Assembly: GCA_046881885.1 (NCBI GenBank)
Contig: JBKSMP010000022.1
Location: forward strand, 1-32,000
Direction: 5' to 3'
Source: Opitutales bacterium
GTDB taxonomy: Bacteria; Verrucomicrobiota; Verrucomicrobiia; Opitutales; UBA9783
Length of the DNA: 32,000 bases
The position numbers were made by a program, and so were the translations under genes. The notes under the pieces were generated by a model, which had not been told where the DNA came from, searched no databases, and saw only the letters and a program-made list of their open reading frames with translations. Positions 2,683 through 30,603 of the stretch are shown piece after piece. The stretch's first letter is position 1; each line of letters starts with the position of its first letter.

Positions 2683-4230
2683 TTATTGTTCTGGTGTTAA
2701 CGACCGTGAAGGTGCTCCGGATGGCGCTGCCGATCGTGCTTGTCGCAATTCTTGTTGCCGTACCATCGTCTGAAATACAGGATTTACTTTCATAGCCTGC
2801 AAATTCTCTTCATATTCCGCTTCATCTACTAACAACATTAACGGTATTCCTCTTTCATCTGCTAATCTTTCAAGCGCATTTTTATGCTGCTCATACTTCG
2901 CTTCTGTCGCTTTTATCACTACGGCCTGTGTCGTGTCCGCTTTGCCATTAATGAATGTTTCGATCTTTCCGGTACTCGTTCCTAATAACTCTAAGGTTGA
3001 AGGAATTTTTTCGTGAATAGATGTTTGGGTATTCGCATGAACAAAAGAATCCCAATATACAGTACGACCTCCTCCACCAAAAACATTGCCTTTAAAATAT
3101 GCAGACCTTGTATTTAAAACATATGACATAATTTGCTGATGGGTTGCATAAGCTTTTATGTTTATTGTACTTTGTACTCTCAAAGCATTACCGATAAAAA
3201 GATGACTGCAAATAACTTGAGAGCTTTGATTTAATCCCAAGGATCCCAAAACACAAAAATTGGATGGCCTCCCTTGTCTTTGTGTGAAACTTTGGATGTT
3301 TGTGATTACCCTTTTACAGTTTAAACAACGATCTCGAAAACCCCACTCATAGCCGCTTGGATTACGAGTACCTTTAGGATCAAATTGTAATTCTCCATTC
3401 CAATTTAATAAAAAACTTCTATTGTCCGTTACAAGGTTTCCTGAAGTATCTTGTAGCACCCTTTTGCTTTCTTTAAAAGCTCCAATTTGGGGTTCAAACT
3501 CACTCTTATTATTTAAGGCTTTTAACGTACAATTACCTCCGACTTGGACCTGACCGCCTGCTATATTATTAAAGGTACAGGGCTCGCCTTTCCAATCCAA
3601 AACACAAGCGATATTTCCTCGATTGTTAACTTCCGTTGCTGGTGATACAAGATCTGCACGTTGCATTGCAAAATTCCCATTTACCTCATTGGTGAATTTC
3701 TGCAAAGCCATCACTTGCCATCCTTGTCCAACAACAATCGTTCCTTTGTTCTGAATAGCTGTTAGCAAACAGGTCCAATCTTGACCAATCCTTAATTCCC
3801 CTTCATTTTCAAACAAAATGCTCTTATTGAGAAACAAACTTTCTGTAACTTCTAAACGGCTACCTTTTGCAATCTTACAAGCCCCTTCATGTTCAAAGTA
3901 CAAGCTTCCATCCCAATTCCCAGCTAAATAAAAACCACCTGAAGTTAGGTTTAGATTCAATCCATCGATCGAAAATCGAACGCCTTTTTCTGGTTGCGTT
4001 ATATCGACTTGTGTCCGATAATCTCCTGGAATAGCTTCGGCCACTTGCCAATTCGCCCCAACTTTTTGAACTTTGATCGCTTCTGTATTTTCACTCCCAG
4101 CAAAATGAACCGTCAATGTCGTAACACTTCCAGAGGTTTTGCTTGTGATTTGTACCATTTCCGCATGCGTTAAGCATATAGAGCCGACTAAATTGCCAGC
4201 TAATACTATCGTTTTGTTTATCTTTATCAT
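2683..4230 (-). CDS. Secreted repeat-rich (beta-helix-like) protein of unknown function, 515 aa, probably co-transcribed with the downstream haemagglutinin-like gene
   Basis: Long ORF in the track. The N-terminus MIKINKTIVLAGNLVGSICLTHA/EM is signal-peptide-like. It is Gly/Asn-rich with alternating short beta-strand-like segments (GTIVVGQGWQV, GGQVQVGGNCTL). The C-terminal tail is acidic and possibly coiled (EAKYEQHKNALERLADERG...). I recognise no family motif. Confidence 0.6.
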   Translation of the reverse strand: MIKINKTIVLAGNLVGSICLTHAEMVQITSKTSGSVTTLTVHFAGSENTEAIKVQKVGANWQVAEAIPGDYRTQVDITQPEKGVRFSIDGLNLNLTSGGFYLAGNWDGSLYFEHEGACKIAKGSRLEVTESLFLNKSILFENEGELRIGQDWTCLLTAIQNKGTIVVGQGWQVMALQKFTNEVNGNFAMQRADLVSPATEVNNRGNIACVLDWKGEPCTFNNIAGGQVQVGGNCTLKALNNKSEFEPQIGAFKESKRVLQDTSGNLVTDNRSFLLNWNGELQFDPKGTRNPSGYEWGFRDRCLNCKRVITNIQSFTQRQGRPSNFCVLGSLGLNQSSQVICSHLFIGNALRVQSTINIKAYATHQQIMSYVLNTRSAYFKGNVFGGGGRTVYWDSFVHANTQTSIHEKIPSTLELLGTSTGKIETFINGKADTTQAVVIKATEAKYEQHKNALERLADERGIPLMLLVDEAEYEENLQAMKVNPVFQTMVRQQELRQARSAAPSGAPSRSLTPEQ

Positions 4231-4477
4231 CTTGGATAAAAAAAGTACTAACTAAGCCTAGGATTCTTCCCATGATCTGCTCAAAAATATTTATGAAAAT
4301 TTCAACAAATTCACTGCTCGCACCAAAAAAACACTCTCTAAGTCTTGGTACTAACTTTAGACAACCTACTGCCCCTCTTAAATGACCAAAATGACCACAA
4401 TCTTTTCTTAAAATAAAATCTCTAAATCTTGTAAAACTTAAAAACCAAAAGAAAATCCATAACAAGATGCTTTTCAT
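4091..4477 (-). CDS. Hypothetical 128-aa ORF with a hydrophobic N-terminus; may be spurious or a leader/frameshift remnant
   Basis: ORF in the track. It overlaps the start of the 515-aa gene by 140 nt in another frame. The N-terminus is MKSILLWIFFWFLSF. I recognise no motif. A minus-strand TTGACA -35 element lies about 60 nt upstream. Confidence 0.25.
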   Translation of the reverse strand: MKSILLWIFFWFLSFTRFRDFILRKDCGHFGHLRGAVGCLKLVPRLRECFFGASSEFVEIFINIFEQIMGRILGLVSTFFIQDDKDKQNDSISWQFSRLYMLNACGNGTNHKQNLWKCYDIDGSFCWE

Positions 4478-4544: not shown

Positions 4545-4620
4545 GCGCTTTTTCGTAAAAATGTAACGTTTTTATATTTATACAAATGTTTCTAGTTTTT
4601 TAAAACATAATCTTTGTTTT

Positions 4621-4722
4621 TGTCACAACTGTCACAAGCTGTCACATTTCGATGTTGTGACAATATTTCGCAGTATTTATGCAGACTTGAGGACGTTTTT
4701 GATATCTGTCACATTTGTCACA
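4621..4722. promoter_or_regulatory. Array of six copies of the near-palindromic heptamer TGTCACA/TGTGACA; candidate transcription-factor binding array
   Basis: Exact TGTCACA at 4621-4627, 4630-4636, 4640-4646, 4707-4713 and 4716-4722. The inverted form TGTGACA is at 4656-4662. Spacing within the clusters is 9-10 bp. The array lies 75-180 bp upstream of the candidate minus-strand -35. Confidence 0.55.
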
Positions 4723-4999: not shown

Positions 5000-5076
<77 letters not shown>

Positions 5077-17115: not shown

Positions 17116-19752
17116 TTAAGATCTGATAATATGTTGATTCTTTTCATTAGGCAAAAGCATTTGAATTGTAGCTTCATTGCCATCGGAGGAAATTTCTAAT
17201 TTCCCATGCCAAGTTTTAACAACCTCTTGAAGCTCTTGAAAGCCTATGCCAAATTGTAATTCATCGCTCAATCTTTGATTTTGGTTCAAGACTCTAAAAA
17301 GTTTTTTGGTGGAAAAGCTACCTAAATCATTTTTGAATAAGATTTGCTTGTTACCGAATTGATCTTGGCCAACAGATATAACAACTGTATTGCTGGCTTC
17401 CGGCAAAGCCTCCATACAAATGCCGATCAAATTATTCAGGGTTCTCCGTAACAATTGACCATCTACGCGAGCAAATACATTTTCTTTTGCTTGCATTTGA
17501 ATCGTTATGGTTTTGTACAAAATTTTATTTTTTTCAATACAACTGAGGATAGCTTGATTGATACTTTCTAGCGTTAGTTGGTCATAACCTTTTAGGCTTC
17601 CAGGGATAAAAGCGTCCAAACAGGCAGCCATTTCCTCAAGCGTACTGGTTACAAGTTTACATTCTTTTTCATCCAATTTATTGGGACTCTTATCAGCAAG
17701 CAGCAGGCGCAAAACCATTAACGGCGTAATGATGTCATGCGATAAACTACGCGCAATATTGTAACGCTCTAAATAAATAGCTAATTCTTTTTCTTTTTGT
17801 AGTGTATTTAGATTGGAACGTAGCAAAAATAGAACAGCAAGGTAACCTAATATATAGAACGTATGTTGCCAGCTAAAGGTTTCTGGCCAACAAAACGTAC
17901 AATTCGCTTTCGTGTAAATAACGGTTGTTATCAATGCGGTTACTAAACAGGCGAAAATGATTTTACCTTCATGTTGCTTTTCAACGCTCAACAACATGAC
18001 TACGAAAGACAATAATAAGGTTATTATATTTAGGCCATTTTCAGCGGACGTCAAAAAGAGATAGGCGGAGGTAACCGGCAAACAGAAGAATAATGTTGTT
18101 AATTTCAACCATTTTAAGCGATTCTGTTTTGCAAATATTTCTAAAGAATTTCCAAAAATAAGCAATATTGCCATAGTAGCATTGATGAGTATTAACAAAA
18201 GCTTTGAGTAGGTCAAACTTTTGGGCTCAAGTACTAAAGGCATGAGTTGCAAAAATACAAGACAAAAACCTAAGAATGCATTATTGTTTCCTTGTATTTC
18301 TTGAAGGCTTGGACGTTTTTTAGTCCGCTTTTCTTCAACAAAACGCAAATGTTCCAATTCTTTTTTTGTAAAAATCTTTTGTCTTCCCGTACGAAAATAA
18401 GAGAATAAAAATAGTATTACATTGGTGAAAAAACCAGGAAACACACCGTCTATTTTAACGATAGGCTTTGCATAAGTATCCCATAATATAAAGGTAAGAA
18501 ATCCAATTATTGCATTAAAAAGGAAGTGTTTGAAGGGAATCTTCATGTTAAAAAGAAGGAAATATAATGGTGCCAATATCGTAGGGAACCAAAATCCTTC
18601 CACCAAAACCGCTAAATCAAATAAGCCAATGCGTAAACTTGCAAAAATGATGGCTCCGGAGCCTATGAATAAAGCAAATCGACGAGCCCACTTAAGTTTT
18701 TCTGCATCTGAAAATTCTCTATTCTTACGTTTATTGTAGGGTATCATAACATCGTTGACTAACATGATACTTCCAATATTTAAGTAGGAATCTGCTGTAG
18801 ACATTAAAACTGCCAAAATACCAATAACTGCTATGCCAAAAACACCTGCAGGTAAGTAACCTGTAATCAATGTGAGTAATGCTTCATCACCATGTTCTAA
18901 CACAGGCAACAAAACTCTTGCAGCCAAACCCAAAAATATTGCTACAACTGCTAAGAATAGGCAGATGAATGTCGTGTTTCGATAAGCTTTTACTGCTTGG
19001 TTACCATTTCGCATCATAAGTAAGCGTTGGATATGATGAGGTGCAAGTGTTGGCAGTATAAACAAGGTTAAGAATAAATATCGAGGAAGATGCTCATTTG
19101 CAAATGTCATATGAGATTTTGGCAAACGCTCCATTAAGGTGTTCAAGCCGCCAATATCTCCAACAACTGAAATTAAAAGAATAGGGAAGGCAACAATTAA
19201 AACGATTAATTGTAAAACATCCGTAAACGTTACTGCGCGTATTCCTCCACGTCCCGTATAAATAAGGATGATGCCGGCAGAAATTAATAAACTTTTTATG
19301 TATGAAAGTCCGGTTAATACACTGATAGCTGTTCCCATTGCAGTAAACTGTAAGCTTACTAAAAGTATTTCATAAAAACTACCTGCAATTCCTGCCAAAA
19401 CTTTTCCAGATGTTCCATAAGATTTGTAAAAAACGTCACCGATAGAATGACAACCGTAATAATTGCTAAAACGACGGGCAAAAAATAGTCCCACCACTAA
19501 ATAGGCTAGTACCCCTCCGATTTTTCCTACAAATTGTATGATGCCTACTTCATATGCTTTTCCGACTGCACCCATGGTTGAGCTACCACCAATAACGGTC
19601 GCTGCTACGGTACAGCAAATGGCAAAATCGGAAAACTTACGATTGCCAATTGTGTAATTGTCGAAGGTTTTAATTTTTTTTCCAGATACTAATCCTATAT
19701 ATAAAACCGCAACTAAAAACACAATAATGATTGAAACATCTAAAATATGCAT
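17116..19752 (-). CDS. Sodium:solute symporter (SSS/SLC5-like) domain fused to a second multi-TM block and a histidine-kinase-like C-terminus (paralogue 1, 878 aa)
   Basis: SSS-type motifs are present (IYTGRGGIRAVTFTDVLQ, LAVLMSTADS). A charged linker and about six more hydrophobic helices follow. The H-box is ERYNIARSLSHDIITPL, with the His codon at the complement of 17737-17739. The C-terminal ~140 aa are HATPase_c-like with weak N/G1/G2 boxes. Confidence 0.8.
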   Translation of the reverse strand: MHILDVSIIIVFLVAVLYIGLVSGKKIKTFDNYTIGNRKFSDFAICCTVAATVIGGSSTMGAVGKAYEVGIIQFVGKIGGVLAYLVVGLFFARRFSNYYGCHSIGDVFYKSYGTSGKVLAGIAGSFYEILLVSLQFTAMGTAISVLTGLSYIKSLLISAGIILIYTGRGGIRAVTFTDVLQLIVLIVAFPILLISVVGDIGGLNTLMERLPKSHMTFANEHLPRYLFLTLFILPTLAPHHIQRLLMMRNGNQAVKAYRNTTFICLFLAVVAIFLGLAARVLLPVLEHGDEALLTLITGYLPAGVFGIAVIGILAVLMSTADSYLNIGSIMLVNDVMIPYNKRKNREFSDAEKLKWARRFALFIGSGAIIFASLRIGLFDLAVLVEGFWFPTILAPLYFLLFNMKIPFKHFLFNAIIGFLTFILWDTYAKPIVKIDGVFPGFFTNVILFLFSYFRTGRQKIFTKKELEHLRFVEEKRTKKRPSLQEIQGNNNAFLGFCLVFLQLMPLVLEPKSLTYSKLLLILINATMAILLIFGNSLEIFAKQNRLKWLKLTTLFFCLPVTSAYLFLTSAENGLNIITLLLSFVVMLLSVEKQHEGKIIFACLVTALITTVIYTKANCTFCWPETFSWQHTFYILGYLAVLFLLRSNLNTLQKEKELAIYLERYNIARSLSHDIITPLMVLRLLLADKSPNKLDEKECKLVTSTLEEMAACLDAFIPGSLKGYDQLTLESINQAILSCIEKNKILYKTITIQMQAKENVFARVDGQLLRRTLNNLIGICMEALPEASNTVVISVGQDQFGNKQILFKNDLGSFSTKKLFRVLNQNQRLSDELQFGIGFQELQEVVKTWHGKLEISSDGNEATIQMLLPNEKNQHIIRS

Positions 19753-20069
19753 GGCTTATAATTAGTAACGAATTTTTTAGAAGTCAAATGTTTTTAAGCT
19801 TTATTTTTCTTGGGTGCATTATTGCTGGTTTTTTGTTAAAACTATGCATTCTTTGATAGGGTGTTGCGCTTCTAAGTAAACATTAAAAAGGCAAGGATTG
19901 AAATTTTCATAAAAATTTTACAAAAAAGAATAAAAAATATTGTAGGATTTTAAGAAAAGAATCATGAACGATTTATTGAACCAGTAAACGAATTGCGAGA
20001 GAAAGGTTTTTAGAAAAATTTTTAAAAAAAGTATTGCAATTGTATTAGGAGTATTGCCATTCTAAAGTC

Positions 20070-21776
20070 ATGCAAGAGTTTGCCGAAAGGTACATGGGGA
20101 TTAGCGTTAATGGAGGAAAAATTTTAGGAGAGGTCTTTTGTTATCAAAAAGATTCCTTAGGTGTTCCTCGTTATAAAATTTCCCAAGAAAGCGTAGATGC
20201 CGAATGGAAACGTTATCAATCTGCGTTAGACTTGACCAAGGTACAACTATTAGAATATAAAAAAAATATAGAAGAAAAGTTAGGAGAAAACGAAGCCGAA
20301 GTTTTTGAAATACAATTGGCTTTGTTGGAGGATGATTATTTGTCAAAGGCTTTATACAAAGAGTTGCAAACAACGCTTTACAATGTAGAATTTTGTTTAA
20401 AAAATGTTATTGAGGCCTGTATGCAACAATTTAAGGGACATGCAATGTTGCATGTTCGTGAAAGTTGTTTAGACTTTAATGATGTAACTTCACGTATTCT
20501 GAAAAATTTGCTTTCTATTTCTCCGGTAGCTCCGTTAAAAGTAAATTTGCAAGGTAAGATTATTGTTGCAGACAATCTTGAGCCTTCAGATGTTGTAGAT
20601 TTGGCCGACAAAGGAATTGCGGCTATTGTTTTGGCGGATGCTTGCTTGAATTCGCATGCAATCATTGTAGCGCGCGGTTTAAATATTCCTATTGTTGCTG
20701 GGGTGGAGGCTGTTCATTTAAAAGTTGCTTCAAATGATGTTTTGCTGGTCGATGGTTCTGAGGGTAAAATTTTTGTAAATCCTTCAAAAGCTTTTTCAGA
20801 TCATTATTTAACTAAAACGGAAAACAAAAAGAAGCTAGCGATAGCGAAAAAAAGTGTTTTAGATGTAGATTTTTGGCTTTCTTATGATTCGAATTTAACA
20901 AAAGAATTCATGGATTCAAATCAGGTAAAGGGGATCGGTTTGTTGCGATCGGAATCCATTTTTCTTGCAAAGGATGAATTACCTAAAGAAGAAGAGCAGT
21001 TTTTGTTTTATAAGTCTGTTGTTGAAAAGTTTGCTCCCTATCCAGTTGTTTTACGCGTGTTAGATGTGGGTGGTGACAAAATCGCAAAAGGTTCTGTTCA
21101 AAGGGAACCAAATCCTTTTTTAGGGGTTCGCGGTATAAGATATTGTTTGCATAATAGTGGACTTTTTAAGCATCAATTACGTGCGATGTTGCGTGCAAGT
21201 GCGTTTGGAAAGGTCCAGATTTTGTATCCGATGATTACGGGTTCGGAAGATTTATTGCAGGCGAATGCCTTATTGGAAGAATGTAAGTCGGAATTAAGGG
21301 ATGAGAAAATTGCTTACGACGATTCTATTCCTATAGGTTCTATGATTGAGATTCCAAGTGCGGTTTTGTTAATGGATCATTTAAGTAATTTTTGTCAGTT
21401 TTTTAGCTTAGGAACGAATGATTTGGTGCAATATACTTTGGCGGCTGATCGTACAAATAATTTAGTGGCTAAACGTTATGGGGACTTGCATCCTTCGATT
21501 TTAAGAATGTTAAAAATGGTTTTTGAAAATGCGCAAACGATACATACGCCCATTACGGTTTGCGGTGAGATGGCAAGTTCTGTTAAAGGTTTTTTGGTTG
21601 GCTTAGCGCTTGGTTTTCGTTCTTTTTGTGTTTATGATAAACAAGTAGACTGCTTAAAGTCTATTTTGTATAATTTGAGTAAAGAAGATTTGGCTTTTAT
21701 TGCCGATAAAATGTGGAGTTTCAGCAACTCGCAAGAAATTTCTCGTTTTTTTGAAAAATTTTTGAACAAAATTTGA
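20070..21776 (+). CDS. ptsI: Phosphoenolpyruvate-protein phosphotransferase (PTS enzyme I)
   Basis: 568 aa. The phospho-His region is NSHAIIVARGLNIPIVAG. The PEP-binding TIM-barrel motifs are present (LRSESIF, LGTNDLVQYTLAADR, VCGEMAS). The start may instead be the ATG at 20094. Confidence 0.85.
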   Translation: MQEFAERYMGISVNGGKILGEVFCYQKDSLGVPRYKISQESVDAEWKRYQSALDLTKVQLLEYKKNIEEKLGENEAEVFEIQLALLEDDYLSKALYKELQTTLYNVEFCLKNVIEACMQQFKGHAMLHVRESCLDFNDVTSRILKNLLSISPVAPLKVNLQGKIIVADNLEPSDVVDLADKGIAAIVLADACLNSHAIIVARGLNIPIVAGVEAVHLKVASNDVLLVDGSEGKIFVNPSKAFSDHYLTKTENKKKLAIAKKSVLDVDFWLSYDSNLTKEFMDSNQVKGIGLLRSESIFLAKDELPKEEEQFLFYKSVVEKFAPYPVVLRVLDVGGDKIAKGSVQREPNPFLGVRGIRYCLHNSGLFKHQLRAMLRASAFGKVQILYPMITGSEDLLQANALLEECKSELRDEKIAYDDSIPIGSMIEIPSAVLLMDHLSNFCQFFSLGTNDLVQYTLAADRTNNLVAKRYGDLHPSILRMLKMVFENAQTIHTPITVCGEMASSVKGFLVGLALGFRSFCVYDKQVDCLKSILYNLSKEDLAFIADKMWSFSNSQEISRFFEKFLNKI

Positions 21777-21873: not shown

Positions 21874-22464
21874 ATGAATAAAAAAGTATTATTAGGTGGC
21901 TTCAGCTTAGTTGCTGGTAGCTTGTTCGCAGCAGAAAATGCAGTTTCTTCCTTCAACCCATATGTTGCAGTTAAAGGTGGATACTCGATCTTGACCAAAA
22001 AAGATAGCATCAAGTACAAAAATGGTTTCAATGGTGCTGTTGAATTTGGTGTTTCTTATGACGCATGGCGCTTAGGTTTGGAAGTTTCTTATCGTCAAAA
22101 CAAGATCAAGAACTCCACAAATGCTGCTGTTCCTGTTGCTACATACAATAAAGTTAATGCTTTGGCAGGTATGATCAACGTTTACTATGACTATGCTTTG
22201 ACCGAAGAATGCTCCTTGTATGTTGGTGCCGGTTTGGGTATGGCCAAATTCAACTTTGTTGCAGTAAACACCAAAATTGAAACTGGAAAGTGCGTTTTCG
22301 CATGGCAAGTATTGGCTGGTGTTGCTTATGACATCAACGAAAACTGGACTGTTGAAGCAGGTTATCGTTTGTTCGGAACCAGCAAAGTTAAGGTTAGCAA
22401 CACTGCTAAAATCAAGACTCCTTTGCAAAACAGCTTAGAGCTTGGTTTGCGTTACAACTTCTAA
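21874..22464 (+). CDS. Small outer-membrane beta-barrel protein (OMP_b-brl/Omp25-like)
   Basis: The signal peptide is MNKKVLLGGFSLVAGSLFA/AE. The body shows an alternating aromatic/aliphatic beta-strand pattern, and the C-terminus is LELGLRYNF, ending in Phe. A strong terminator follows the gene. Confidence 0.8.
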   Translation: MNKKVLLGGFSLVAGSLFAAENAVSSFNPYVAVKGGYSILTKKDSIKYKNGFNGAVEFGVSYDAWRLGLEVSYRQNKIKNSTNAAVPVATYNKVNALAGMINVYYDYALTEECSLYVGAGLGMAKFNFVAVNTKIETGKCVFAWQVLAGVAYDINENWTVEAGYRLFGTSKVKVSNTAKIKTPLQNSLELGLRYNF

Positions 22465-27498: not shown

Positions 27499-27864
27499 AG
27501 ACTTTTGCAACCTTGCAATTTAAAACAAAAAAGTCCACAATACAAATACAGCATATATAAACTTAAAAAGCGAACACTATTTTTCTTCTCTAAAAAAGGT
27601 TTAAAAACCTTTTGAAAATAAACATCCTTCAAAAGTCTAAAATGGTTGTAAAGTGGAGCCGTAGTGAGGATTTTTAGAAATATTAGAATTCAATTTTTTT
27701 CTAAAACTTTTCTAACTTTTTTAATTTTCTTTAAAAACAATTTCCCATAAAAATTTTTAGGTTTTCGACTTTTGCAGGATGTTTAATATTATCCAATGTC
27801 ATTTTAACAATAAAAAATTAATTAAAAACTGGACATTTTATTAAAATCCAACTAATAAAAAGTC

Positions 27865-30498
27865 ATGCATGTCATCGATATTTCAATTATTATAAGTTTC
27901 CTTATAGCAACATTATATGTAGGTTTAAAATCTGGTAAAAATATAAAAACATTTAGCGATTATGCTATCGGTAATAGAAATTTTTCTGATTTTGCTATTT
28001 TTTGTACAGTAGCAGCTACTATTATCGGAGGAACGGTAACAATAGGAAATGTTGGGAAATTTTATGATGTTGGAATTAGTCAAATATTAGTACAAATTGG
28101 AGAACCTATTGCTTATATTTTGGTTGGCTTATTTTTGGCACGTCGTTTTGGAAATTATTATGGTTGTTGTTCTTTAGGCGATATGTTCCATAGATCCTAT
28201 GGAATGCCAGGGAAAATTTTAATAGGCATCATAGGAAGCCTGTACGAAATACTTGGTGTGGGATTACAATTTATAGCGATGGGGACAGGTATCAGCGTTT
28301 TAACAGGCCTTTCTTATATAAATAGCCTTTTAATTGCAGGTGGTATTATTCTCATTTATACGGGTCGTGGGGGCATACGTTCTGTAACATTTACAGATGT
28401 TTTGCAGTTTATAGTACTTATTGTAGCTATTCCTATTCTTTTGATAACAGTAATTACAAAAATTGGGGGCATACAAGTATTAATGGAGCAATTACCGCGA
28501 TCGCATGTAACCATTACAGGTGAAAATTTTCGACGATATATATTTTTAATGTTTCCTATGATGTTAATAACATTTTCACCGCATCATGTCCAACGTTTGT
28601 TAATGACTAAAAACTATGAGCAAGGAGCAAAGGCTTTTTTTAATTTAAGTTGGGTTTTTTCATTTGTAGTTATTATGGCCTTGTTTTTAGGTTTTTCAGC
28701 AAAAATTTTATTTCCCGGATTAACACGTCCTGATCAAGCTTTGCTTGTCTTAATGACAAATTATTTACCTGCAGGAATTTTTGGAATAGCTATGATTGGT
28801 ATTTTAGCTGTTTTAATGTCTACGGCAGACTCAAATATAAATAGTGGAAGTATTGTATTGGTTAACGATTTAATTATTCCTTATAAAAAATACATACAAA
28901 AAAAAGAATTATCAGAAGCTGAAAAATTAAAATATGCTCGTATTATTTCAGTATTTATAGGTTTTGCGGCTTTTATTTTTGCAAGTCAATGCACAAGTAT
29001 ATTTGAAACGAGAATTTTTATTCGTACCATATGGTTTTCTATTATTTTATCCCCGTTATATTTCCTTCTTTTTAATGTAAAAATTTCTGTTAAAGGACTT
29101 ATGTTAAGTGCTTTAATCGGCTTGTTTACATTTTCTTTTTGGAATGCAAATCTCAAACCAATTACACAAATTGATGGCCTATTCCCGGGATTTTTCGCAA
29201 ACATCATAACGGTACTTTTCTTTTATTTTTGGGGAGGTCGGCAGAAGGTATTTTCGAAGGAGGAATTAGCAAAGATGCGTCAAGCAGAGGCGTTGCAAAT
29301 CAAGAAGAAGCCGAGTGTACGTGATTTACAAATGCGCAATCATGTATTTTTAGGTTTATGTCTTGTATTTCTTCAATTGGTACCCTTGGTTTTTGAATTA
29401 AATGCATTAACTTATTCAAAGTTAATGTTAACACTTATAAACGGAATTTTAGCCATATTACTTATTTTTGGAGGATCCTTGGAGATTTTTGCAGCATCTA
29501 AGCACTTTCAATGGCTAAAGTTGACGATCTTATTCTTTTGCTTACCAGTTACGTCAGCTTATTTAGTGATAACATCTGCCGAAAATGGCCTGCATGTGTT
29601 AACTTTGTTGTTATCATTTGTTATAATGATTTTAAGCGTTAAGAAGAGGCAAGAAAGTAAAATTGCTTGGGTATGCGCGCTAACTGGTTTTATCACGGTT
29701 ATTACTTATTTTAAAATGGGATGCGAAATTTATTGGCCACATAGTTTTTCTATTCATCATTTGCTTTATTTGTTCGGATTTGTAGCTGTTTTATTGTTGC
29801 TAAGATCTAACATGAATATGTTGCGTATGGCTATTTATCAAGAACGTTACAACATGGCACGGAGCTTATCGCATGATTTGATGTCACCTTTGATGGCATT
29901 TCACATGCTTGTTGGGAACAAAAAGAAGATAGAATTGGATGAAAAAGAAAGTCAGCTCCTCAAAAATATTGCCAATGAAATGGGCAGTTACATTGATGAT
30001 TTTATTGTCGGCAGCTTAAAAGATCAGTCACAATTAAAGCTCGAAGACCTGAATCAATGTGTCCTCAGCTGCATCGAAAAACAAACGATTTTGAATAAAA
30101 ATCTAGAAATTCAATTGCAAGCGAAGGAGACAATTTTTGCACGCGTAGATGCGGTTCTTTTGCGCCGAATCATCAATAATCTCGTCAACGTTTGCCGGCA
30201 TGCATTACCGAACGGTTGCAACACGATCGTAATTGCCATCGACAACGATCCGCTCGGCAATACCCAAATCCTCTTGCAAGCTGCCAATGGTGATTTTTCC
30301 GCAAAAGCTCTTAAGGGGATGTTTATCGAGGATCAAAAATTAGGCGACGAAGTTGAACTCGGCATCAGCTTCCCTGAATTCCAAGATATTGTCGCTAAAT
30401 GGAACGGCAAGTTGGAACTTATTTCTCAAGATAATAACGCTATTATCCAAATCCTTCTCCCTAATAAGGATAACGATAAGCTGATCCAAAAAGCGTAA
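27865..30498 (+). CDS. Sodium:solute symporter domain fused to a second multi-TM block and a histidine-kinase-like C-terminus (paralogue 2, 877 aa)
   Basis: Colinear with the 17116..19752 protein; 42 of the first 60 residues are identical by hand count. SSS motifs are present (IYTGRGGIRSVTFTDVLQ, LAVLMSTADS). The H-box is ERYNMARSLSHDLMSPL, with the His codon at 29872-29874. The C-terminal domain is a degenerate HATPase_c-like domain. Confidence 0.8.
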   Translation: MHVIDISIIISFLIATLYVGLKSGKNIKTFSDYAIGNRNFSDFAIFCTVAATIIGGTVTIGNVGKFYDVGISQILVQIGEPIAYILVGLFLARRFGNYYGCCSLGDMFHRSYGMPGKILIGIIGSLYEILGVGLQFIAMGTGISVLTGLSYINSLLIAGGIILIYTGRGGIRSVTFTDVLQFIVLIVAIPILLITVITKIGGIQVLMEQLPRSHVTITGENFRRYIFLMFPMMLITFSPHHVQRLLMTKNYEQGAKAFFNLSWVFSFVVIMALFLGFSAKILFPGLTRPDQALLVLMTNYLPAGIFGIAMIGILAVLMSTADSNINSGSIVLVNDLIIPYKKYIQKKELSEAEKLKYARIISVFIGFAAFIFASQCTSIFETRIFIRTIWFSIILSPLYFLLFNVKISVKGLMLSALIGLFTFSFWNANLKPITQIDGLFPGFFANIITVLFFYFWGGRQKVFSKEELAKMRQAEALQIKKKPSVRDLQMRNHVFLGLCLVFLQLVPLVFELNALTYSKLMLTLINGILAILLIFGGSLEIFAASKHFQWLKLTILFFCLPVTSAYLVITSAENGLHVLTLLLSFVIMILSVKKRQESKIAWVCALTGFITVITYFKMGCEIYWPHSFSIHHLLYLFGFVAVLLLLRSNMNMLRMAIYQERYNMARSLSHDLMSPLMAFHMLVGNKKKIELDEKESQLLKNIANEMGSYIDDFIVGSLKDQSQLKLEDLNQCVLSCIEKQTILNKNLEIQLQAKETIFARVDAVLLRRIINNLVNVCRHALPNGCNTIVIAIDNDPLGNTQILLQAANGDFSAKALKGMFIEDQKLGDEVELGISFPEFQDIVAKWNGKLELISQDNNAIIQILLPNKDNDKLIQKA

Positions 30499-30527
30499 TC
30501 CTTTGTATTCATAGCCTTTTGAACCTT

Positions 30528-30555
30528 AAAAACCTGCTTCTAATGGCAGGTTTTT
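30528..30555. terminator. Rho-independent, potentially bidirectional terminator after SSS-HK paralogue 2
   Basis: AAAAACCTGC-ttctaatg-GCAGGTTTTT: a 5-bp GC-containing stem extended by A5/T5 arms, starting 30 nt after the stop codon. Confidence 0.7.
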
Positions 30556-30603
30556 AAGTAATAGTTTTTAAGCAAAATATCGAATAATTTTTGCCTATTC
30601 CAC

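Follow-up and report, generated by a model that had tools for sequence, protein, structure and literature searches.

The DNA considered here is a stretch of 32,000 nucleotides from an Opitutales bacterium (assembly GCA_046881885.1, contig JBKSMP010000022.1, positions 1 to 32,000), referred to in its full length as the window. It carries two paralogous genes, here termed PAR1 and PAR2, which lie 8 kb apart in one genome (Table 1). Each encodes an N-terminal sodium:solute symporter (SSS) domain, a second block of transmembrane helices, and a C-terminal tail that resembles the dimerisation and histidine phosphotransfer (DHp) and the catalytic and ATP-binding (CA) domains of histidine kinases. The tails retain a histidine box (H box) and show degenerate ATP-binding boxes, and it is this combination that is analysed here. 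Homologous proteins are designated by P numbers and the loci retrieved for them by L numbers; the data comprise the 32-kb window and flanks of about 10 kb around the genes of relatives.

BLASTP aligns PAR1 and PAR2 colinearly over their full lengths with 505 identities in 879 positions (57%) and six gap positions, and neither open reading frame (ORF) has a frameshift or an internal stop codon. The initial annotation, which was made from the letters alone, described the paralogues as colinear throughout, with 42 identities in the first 60 residues and a visibly lower C-terminal third. A recount gives the same 42, the alignment does run end to end, and the three thirds of it show 63.1, 60.5 and 49.5% identity. 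By domain, identity is 60.9% in the SSS domain, 62.0% in the second transmembrane block, 53.7% in the DHp and 48.1% in the CA-like domain. The closest relatives of the two proteins come from metagenome-assembled genomes (MAGs) of Opitutales bacteria, and more distant members from Puniceicoccales MAGs.

Table 1. Positions of PAR1, PAR2, their domains and boxes, flanking elements of PAR2, and phage-borne homologues (window coordinates unless a locus is named)
Feature	Position	Strand	Particulars	Basis
PAR2, complete ORF including stop codon	27865..30498	+	877 aa; SSS transporter, six-helix transmembrane block, DHp plus CA-like putative pseudokinase tail	
PAR2 sodium:solute symporter (SLC5/LeuT-fold) domain	27865..29274	+	residues 1-470	Pfam SSF, PDB sequence matches, Foldseek
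PAR2 second transmembrane block	29275..29814	+	residues 471-650; short cytoplasmic linker, then six predicted transmembrane helices	hydropathy; AlphaFold secondary structure, pLDDT 70-92
PAR2 DHp helical hairpin	29815..30099	+	residues 651-745	AlphaFold helices; Foldseek: EnvZ chimera, HK853, CpxA-type cores
PAR2 CA-like (Bergerat-fold) domain	30100..30495	+	residues 746-877; degenerate ATP site	alignment, AlphaFold, Foldseek, profile search, Pfam
PAR2 H box ERYNMARSLSHDLMSPL	29842..29892	+	residues 660-676; H670, D671, S674, P675	family alignment
PAR2 N-box helix RRIINNLVNVCRHALP	30163..30210	+	Mg-Asn column = V776; N775 one position early	family alignment; KinB 3d36 profile alignment
PAR2 G1-box region LLQAANGDFSAKALKGMF	30271..30324	+	D/G/G columns = A806/N808/D810	family alignment
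PAR2 G2-box region EVELGISFPEFQDIV	30349..30393	+	one of three glycines kept (G833)	family alignment
PAR1, paralogue	17116..19752	-	878 aa; architecture as PAR2; divergent from ptsI (20070-21776)	
PAR1 H box ERYNIARSLSHDIITPL	17719..17769	-	residues 662-678	motif location
PAR1 N-box helix RRTLNNLIGICMEALP	17401..17448	-	Asn column = I778	family alignment
PAR1 G1 region ILFKNDLGSFSTKKLFRV	17290..17343	-	D/G/G columns = N/L/S; Asp shifted +1	family alignment
PAR1 G2 region ELQFGIGFQELQEVV	17218..17262	-	two of three glycines kept	family alignment
Conserved 5' flank of PAR2 with promoter-like element	27813..27864	+	blastn similarity starts 52 nt before ATG	alignment
Terminator-like hairpin just 3' of PAR2 stop	30525..30558	+		within stretch aligning to phage locus L061
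Phage-borne homologue P0003	L058:10001-12652		retrieved stretch L058:1-22652	
Phage-borne homologue P0005	L060:10001-12640		retrieved stretch L060:1-18552	
Phage-borne homologue P0012	L061:10001-12646		retrieved stretch L061:1-12957	

Architecture and predicted fold

PAR1 and PAR2 are members of the SSS family (SLC5, PF00474), and Na+-coupled transport is predicted for them. SSF is the sole Pfam domain above threshold in the two proteins, with scores of 122.1 bits for PAR2 and 110.9 bits for PAR1 (cut-off 22.8) over residues 33-419. It is also matched in 35 of 35 members of the window clade, which is defined as PAR1, PAR2 and P0001-P0033. NCBIfam models give weak PanF/PutP-like and weak EnvZ/VanS-like similarity, PanF and PutP being the best but far under their cut-offs. 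PDB sequences matched by the transporter part of PAR2 are bacterial and human CHT, NIS and SiaT, and Foldseek retrieves SGLT1/2, SiaT, CHT1 and NIS with target-normalised TM-scores of up to 0.83. The LeuT-type fold of SLC5 transporters is recovered in the full-length AlphaFold model of PAR2, which has a mean predicted local distance difference test score (pLDDT) of 85.5 and a predicted TM-score (pTM) of 0.77.

The transporter core of PAR2 looks intact, with residues Y165, G170, D178, Q181, S319 and D322 invariant in 91 family sequences. Its segment AVLMSTADS, which contains S319 and T320, aligns to MSSMDSS of a CHT homologue and to LSTASTS of NIS; we take S319 and T320 to be the Ser/Thr pair of transmembrane helix 8 that contributes to the Na2 site, a position assigned by analogy with PutP and vSGLT.

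Residues 471-650 of PAR2 have no Pfam match, and STAC and PAS domains were thus not found there. AlphaFold places six extra membrane helices at about residues 485-650, and a helix spanning residues 630-684 is unbroken from the last transmembrane helix into DHp helix 1 and the H-box residue His670. The order in the model is an SLC5-type transporter, a cytoplasmic linker, six helices, a DHp hairpin and an alpha/beta domain, and Foldseek pairs the tail of this full-length model with histidine kinase cores.

The tail modelled by itself (PAR2 645-877) has a pLDDT of 85.2. Its top Foldseek neighbour is the EnvZ chimera 4kp4 (E 1e-10), followed by HK853, WalK/YycG and VicK, with E-values of 1e-10 to 1e-8 and TM-scores of 0.64-0.70 for these kinases; the pseudo-kinases DivL (4q20) and RetS (6dk7) are also among the neighbours. 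As modelled, the PAR2 tail keeps the DHp-CA fold of histidine kinases. A profile of the clade tails compared with 1.84 billion representative proteins gave 2822 matches at E<=1e-3, and matches outside the family, at E 1e-10 to 1e-13, cover nearly the whole DHp plus CA profile. The family itself is small, since only 16 clusters reach E<=1e-30. When the clade-only profile was compared with PDB sequences, the histidine kinase matches were all sub-significant (KinB, E 0.049), and kinase homology is therefore argued via intermediates, the large profile search and structure. On these grounds PAR1 and PAR2 are homologous to class I histidine kinases.

Degenerate ATP site in a conserved tail

The motif strings listed in the initial annotation are all present. 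ERYNxARSLSHDxxxPL is found in both proteins; in the N-box region PAR2 has NNLVNVC (771-777) and PAR1 has NNLIGIC (773-779). Those of the G1 region are ANGDFS (PAR2 807-812) and NDLGSF (PAR1 808-813), and those of the G2 region LGISF (PAR2 832-836) and FGIGF (PAR1 834-838). What these strings signify depends on register, which was set by a gap-free family alignment that includes natural intermediates with canonical boxes.

The H box is canonical in both paralogues and conserved across the clade, as had been proposed. At least 90% of the 35 clade members share H670, D671 and P675, Ser or Thr is found at position H+4, and E660, A665, R666, L668 and L676 are invariant. The core reads SHDLMSPL in PAR2 and SHDIITPL in PAR1, and the predicted hairpin agrees with solved DHp domains.

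The ATP-binding boxes present a different picture. The canonical Mg-Asn column of the N box is V, I, T or L throughout the window clade, and a profile alignment to KinB (3d36) likewise places the catalytic Asn opposite a hydrophobic column of the clade. The Asn that lies out of register in PAR2, N775, does not qualify as a substitute: its column varies as N/K/S/G in the clade and is Gly in PAR1. In the G1 region the reported loss of Asp from PAR2 holds, the in-register columns being A, N and D. For PAR1 the Asp and Gly had been described as kept. The letters are there, but each lies one position out of register relative to RDNGRGLS of P0036, and they are not accepted as kept because no indel justifies a one-residue shift. 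G2 is partial in both proteins, E-L-G-I-S-F in PAR2 having one of the three glycines and Q-F-G-I-G-F in PAR1 two. Pfam HATPase_c gives no match in PAR2 and 16.4 bits in PAR1, under the cut-off of 26.4. Among the 35 clade members HATPase_c is matched in one (E 0.004) and HisKA in none, and no member passes the HATPase_c gathering score.

Relatives outside the clade form a graded natural series. P0053 has canonical boxes (N box NLINN, G1 DNGCG, G2 GFGIGL). P0044-50 keep the N box and G1 and have a weakened G2 (L-S-I-G-L). In the sister clade P0036-40 the N box is NxLNV, with the Mg-Asn column already Val, while G1 is DNGxG and G2 GFGVGL. In the window clade the Asn column is V/I/T/L, G1 has no in-register Asp or Gly, and G2 has one or two of three Gly. 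The G1 motif DxGxG is thus intact in P0036-53 and lost in every window-clade member. Since loss of the N-box Asn is common to P0036-40 and loss of G1 to the whole window clade, the erosion appears to predate the PAR1/PAR2 split; most parsimoniously, the degeneracy of the ATP site is older than the duplication.

The two paralogues had been thought to show different and partly complementary erosion. This is not borne out, as both are without the same Asn and G1 residues, and neither has an ATP site to offer its partner. The suggestion that they are pseudokinases fares better, given the same-register loss of Asn and G1, the partial G2 and the predicted retention of the fold. Loss of ATP binding would be expected from these changes, and we consider it probable, judging from the sequence, that the proteins are kinase-dead.

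The tail has nevertheless been maintained. The ratio dN/dS (omega) was calculated by the Nei-Gojobori method (NG86) for each domain on a codon alignment, with DNA retrieved for eight homologues. Omega for the CA domain ranges from 0.08 to 0.16. Six comparisons have unsaturated dS: PAR2 against P0003 (omega 0.13, dS 0.51), P0005 (0.13, dS 0.44) and P0012 (0.12, dS 0.53); PAR1 against P0032 (0.13, dS 0.76); P0020 against P0030 (0.08, dS 0.13); and P0005 against P0012 (0.09, dS 0.71). In the transporter domain omega is 0.10-0.30, so the CA domain is similar or lower. Values near 1 confined to the tails, which the initial annotation named as the mark of simple decay, were not found; the tail is under purifying selection and simple decay is excluded. 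Between PAR2 and its closest retrievable relatives, which are phage-borne, the tail is also the best-conserved part, with 88-90% identity in the CA domain against 65-69% in the transporter.

Two further features of the C-terminal region were observed. C736, within SCIEK, and C777, directly after the lost Asn column (window 30070-30072 and 30193-30195), do not vary in any of the 35 clade members and are largely retained across the wider family; they might serve in redox chemistry or metal binding. Relatives of 1000-1018 aa (P0036-P0040 and P0044-P0050) carry a C-terminal extension of about 130 residues that is weakly receiver-like and is lost in the window clade. Its best PDB match is the receiver 3kto, a weak one (E 0.084), no Pfam family matches it, and an invariant Glu (CFFIE) occupies the position of the would-be phospho-accepting Asp.

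Mosaic genes, mobility and genomic setting

Within single gene pairs, dS differs more than tenfold between segments. It is 1.0 in the transporter and 0.08 in the tail for P0020/P0030, 0.64 and 0.05 for P0021/P0024, and 1.41 in the second transmembrane block and 0.05 in the DHp for P0005/P0012. Sliding windows reveal blocks of 100% nucleotide identity that abut blocks of 47-62%. PAR2 and the phage-borne copies have a break at about residue 700-710, beyond which nucleotide identity is 86-96% instead of 65-75% and third-position identity 70-90% instead of 40-55%. Neighbour-joining trees of the transporter, the second transmembrane block and the tail, drawn without support values, are incongruent. 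Transporter modules have been exchanged among copies by recombination.

Only the tail tree splits a PAR1 type (PAR1, P0033, P0032, P0020, P0030 and P0031) from a PAR2 type. Mean identity within and between types is 67 and 63% for the transporter, 62-82 and 51% for the DHp, and 63-72 and 45% for the CA domain, and four type-specific differences are fixed in the DHp. The low C-terminal identity of PAR1 and PAR2 thus represents two old, separately conserved tail types and not erosion. Recent gene conversion between PAR1 and PAR2 in the window was considered and rejected, as third-position identity is 32-56% throughout and dS is saturated. No additional silent gene fragments, from which sequence might be donated in recombination, turned up in the window or the retrieved loci. 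Three pairs of alleles (L058/L060, L060/L061 and L056/L057) have flanks with 97-100% nucleotide identity and a gene with 68-87% in 500-bp windows. The locus encoding the SSS-pseudokinase is a local hot spot of diversity.

Copies of the gene are found in several settings. The three phage-borne homologues are each 70-71% identical to PAR2 and lie on contigs of 29-35 kb, flanked by a serine recombinase and an HTH_17 gene at one end and by SSB/RecT at the opposite end. PHROGs matches on L058 include a major head protein, portal/adaptor, protease, large terminase, replication initiator and DNA invertase. Judging from these genes, the carrier represented by L058, L060 and L061 is a temperate phage with the PAR2-type gene as cargo. 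A scan of IMG/VR for phage carrying PAR2 homologues gave no matches, and tblastn against GenBank phages gave two distant SSS matches only, at about 24% identity; the carrier phage is therefore absent from those collections. A scan of genome contigs for homologues returned three partial loci only, and one of metagenome contigs no close orthologues, the best having 44% identity. PHROGs families of unknown function match parts of PAR2, namely phrog_20720 (E 8e-17) and phrog_15045 the transporter and phrog_857 (E 1.5e-4) the DHp and N-box region, so phage-encoded SSS-like proteins are not unique to this lineage.

The gene for P0006 adjoins that of a type IV secretion system (T4SS) coupling protein and, in one variant, also that of an OTU-domain protein. 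P0021 and P0024 are chromosomal and lie beside genes for an ATP/ADP translocase (TLC), DNA polymerase III alpha and DnaA, with Mu-like prophage genes near. The TLC genes are at L056:6377-7885 and L057:6366-7874, and the OTU-domain and T4SS coupling protein genes are among L063:2790-4934 and L062:5915-7357. TLC, OTU-domain proteins and T4SS coupling proteins are markers usual in host-associated or intracellular bacteria, and the presence of TLC and OTU genes in related loci suggests a host-associated lifestyle. In the window itself, an outer membrane protein gene (21874-22464) matches Rickettsiales-type surface-antigen families.

The promoter-like element in the 5' flank of PAR2 is common to the phage copies (L058, L060 and L061), the T4SS-adjacent copy (L062) and a chromosomal copy (L056). 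At the other end, similarity between the window and L061 continues 157 nt beyond the stop codon, across the terminator-like hairpin. With its own promoter-like element and a hairpin inside the shared stretch, the gene behaves as a self-contained cassette.

The six TGTCACA heptamers present in the window, five direct and one inverted, are all contained in a 106-bp element at positions 4617-4722. Counterparts of this element occur at L058 12927-13032 (94% identity) and L060 12915-13020 (86%), each immediately 3' of the SSS gene carried by the phage. In the window the element is about 280 bp from a tRNA gene (5003-5076, minus strand), and it lies 5' of two leftward ORFs. Its role might be that of a phage operator or an attachment-related site.

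As to the remainder of the window, rsmE is the neighbour of PAR2 on one side, and no gene was recognised in the sequence on the other. The divergent pair formed by PAR1 and ptsI, the gene for enzyme I of the phosphotransferase system (window 17116-21776), is kept in L055:123-4784 (P0032) and not at other PAR1-type genes. The first 2 kb of the window have a G+C content of 0.45-0.49 compared with about 0.35-0.40 elsewhere. ORFs 59-457, 2030-2383, 2683-4230 and 4091-4477 belong to no Pfam or PHROGs family, and the idea that the left part of the window holds a prophage was discarded, as PHROGs matched none of the ORFs there. An Rfam scan of the window found two tRNAs and no other element.

Proposed function and relation to known systems

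The interpretation we somewhat favour is that PAR2, a gene that is intact and maintained by selection, encodes a transceptor, i.e. a transporter-sensor that is kinase-dead and has a His-dependent non-kinase role. The SSS domain, a candidate transporter, would adopt different conformational states, and its conformation might gate the tail through the continuous helix that joins the last transmembrane segment to the DHp. The CA domain, which would keep its fold without the Mg-ATP residues, would not support autophosphorylation, and the DHp, through its His, could perform ATP-independent chemistry on a response regulator, acting either as its phosphatase or as its phosphotransfer partner. From the conservation of the H box in at least 90% of the clade, together with purifying selection on the tail, we infer that the tail does ATP-free, His-dependent chemistry. 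EnvZ lends support to this inference: its mutant N347D reportedly lacks kinase activity yet keeps phosphatase activity, and the DHp domain of EnvZ by itself is said to act as a phosphatase as well. The phosphatase motif of HisKA domains is H-E/D-x-x-T/N; HDIIT of PAR1 is an exact fit and HDLMS of PAR2 a conservative one.

A partner regulator would be required by such a role, and a possible candidate for the PAR1-type tails is an NtrC-type protein encoded about 2 kb from PAR1-type genes in two loci (L054:6485-7795 and L059:4153-5463, both minus strand). This regulator is intact, with a REC domain that has the acceptor Asp D52, a sigma-54 AAA+ domain with GSFTGA, and HTH_8. It should be pointed out, however, that its gene is on the strand opposite the PAR1-type gene with other genes in between, and that the two do not form an operon. 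Other observations also weigh against the transceptor interpretation. No response regulator gene is present in the 32-kb window, and none was seen adjoining the PAR2-type copies examined. Position H+4 is Ser in PAR2, not Thr or Asn, and it is Ala in the more distant degenerate clade P0060-64. In P0018, a PAR2-type protein of 874 aa, and in no other clade member, unrelated sequence stands in place of the H box and the greater part of the DHp, with a CA-like domain that is typical; an artefact of assembly or frameshift might account for this, or else a naturally occurring variant that has no His. In addition, the omega values for the CA domain come from few, non-independent pairs of a recombining gene in which transporter dS is near saturation in several segments.

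Some of these observations would be equally at home with a tail that is a structural or regulatory appendage, in which the DHp bundle dimerises, the CA-like domain modulates transport or binds another ligand or protein, and the His box is conserved for packing or an unrelated interaction, with no phosphoryl chemistry. The absence of a response regulator in the window or beside the PAR2-type copies is in keeping with this, as are P0018 without a His box, the transporter core residues invariant in 91 sequences, and a single self-contained cassette on phage and beside T4SS genes, which suits stand-alone uptake. C736 and C777 hint at a function of the CA-like domain's own. Nevertheless, the conserved H-box residues are catalytic ones (His, Asp at +1, Ser/Thr at +4 and Pro at +5) and go beyond the hydrophobic core; they persist in every sub-clade, even with the most degenerate CA, and dimerisation by itself leaves an omega of about 0.1 over the whole CA-like domain unexplained. 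An appendage of this kind deserves serious thought, although we consider it rather unlikely. A fully canonical H box, a Bergerat fold confidently predicted except in the lid region, and conserved motifs resembling G2 (G-I-G/S-F) and W-H/N-G-K-L could also be taken as signs of an active kinase with non-canonical ATP binding, in which N775 or other residues replace the Asn and Asp. This is improbable in view of the joint loss of the Mg-Asn, the adenine-binding Asp and the G1 glycines, the variability of the N775 column already described, and the failure of every clade member to reach the HATPase_c gathering score. Relatives with intact motifs (P0053 and P0044-50), moreover, display what the functional state of the family looks like.

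The initial annotation also raised the possibility of a heterodimer. An obligate PAR1/PAR2 heterodimer with degenerate halves that complement one another would suit the proximity of the two genes in one genome, the occurrence of both tail types in one metagenome sample (SRR33036534), and the distinctness and separate conservation of the types. We regard it as very improbable. The shared losses would leave no complete ATP site; PAR2-type genes occur singly on phage contigs and beside T4SS genes, with PAR1-type genes in other contexts; and a DHp identity of about 51-54% between types, with four fixed differences, fits insulated paralogues better. Finally, the C-terminal third has the lowest PAR1/PAR2 identity, which is what would be seen if the tails were decaying remnants under relaxed selection. 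That notion is hardly credible in the face of the CA omega values, of a tail more conserved than any other part between PAR2 and its phage-borne relatives, and of ORFs that are free of frameshifts and stops and encode a confidently predicted fold.

A broader and distinctly tentative proposal, which we think unlikely to hold as a whole, concerns what the mobility of the gene is for. The gene might be a mobile, hypervariable, mix-and-match cassette in which two conserved kinase-dead tails are recombined with many divergent transporter/sensor modules under frequency-dependent selection. Its carriers would be temperate phages, possibly conjugative elements, and the chromosomes of host-associated Verrucomicrobiota. 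Such a cassette could allow phage and bacterium alike to re-tune which host-derived solute is imported or sensed, or could take part in phage-host conflict through an injection route or superinfection exclusion. The dead kinase would reset a host regulator by dephosphorylating it without ATP.

Sensor kinases fused to transporters have precedents, as do pseudo-histidine kinases, but we know of no natural, clade-wide, kinase-dead transporter-sensor in which the His box is kept and the ATP site lost. The graded series from canonical P0053, through P0044-50 with G2 weakened and P0036-40 with the Mg-Asn lost, to the window clade in which G1 is also lost, could reveal how a kinase becomes a phosphatase-only or scaffold protein. 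Phage carriage, T4SS adjacency, a promoter-like element of its own, and 13-32% divergence inside genomes that are 97-100% identical suggest a role for the protein in how host-associated bacteria adapt to nutrients, or in an ecological arms race. The findings on phage carriage, on the cassette and on the extreme local mosaicism add interest and are still descriptive. There is a consequence for annotation as well, as 'sodium:solute symporter family transporter' conceals the signalling tail and 'histidine kinase' would be incorrect.

The nearest functional parallels are the SSS-fused sensor kinases of the CbrA/CrbS type, known from Pseudomonas CbrA-CbrB and Vibrio CrbS-CrbR, in which STAC and PAS domains are present, the kinase boxes are canonical and a regulator is encoded alongside. 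PAR1 and PAR2 share with them an N-terminal symporter fused to a C-terminal DHp-CA module, and the NtrC-type regulator near PAR1-type genes in two loci recalls CbrB. They differ in having no STAC or PAS domain, six extra transmembrane helices instead joining the transporter to the DHp. Their CA domain is without the N-box Asn and G1, HisKA and HATPase_c are below threshold, and no regulator is adjacent in the window. Within the family, P0053 (875 aa) and P0044-50 (1000-1011 aa) have the PAR2 architecture, 38-44% full-length identity and a common H box, ERYxLARSxSHD, but keep the N box NLINN, G1 DNGCG and a Pfam HATPase_c match. More remote are P0065-P0117, including P0092 and P0096 of 'Candidatus Megaira', which are about 20-24% identical and have SSS, HisKA and HATPase_c with other sequence upstream of the His; unlike PAR2, they retain a canonical N box, G1 and the HATPase_c match.

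DivL of Caulobacter and RetS of Pseudomonas resemble PAR2 in that the histidine kinase fold is kept while kinase activity is absent or dispensable, as is predicted for PAR2. DivL has Tyr in place of the His and no transporter fusion, and RetS acts by heteromerising with GacS. PAR2, in contrast, keeps the His box, appears to be without an ATP site, and has a transporter as its sensor; it has no specific sequence relationship to either protein beyond the superfamily. EnvZ N347D is alike in the loss of the N-box Asn, for which I778 of PAR1 and V776 of PAR2 are natural equivalents. It is, however, a laboratory mutant of a canonical kinase, whereas the state of PAR1 and PAR2 is natural and clade-wide and extends to G1. 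With its N-box Asn and G1 lost and G2 incomplete, PAR2 falls short of the three defining catalytic features and is not to be filed as a histidine kinase. By its motifs it belongs instead to the pseudo-histidine kinases, which are a functional class and not a homologous family.

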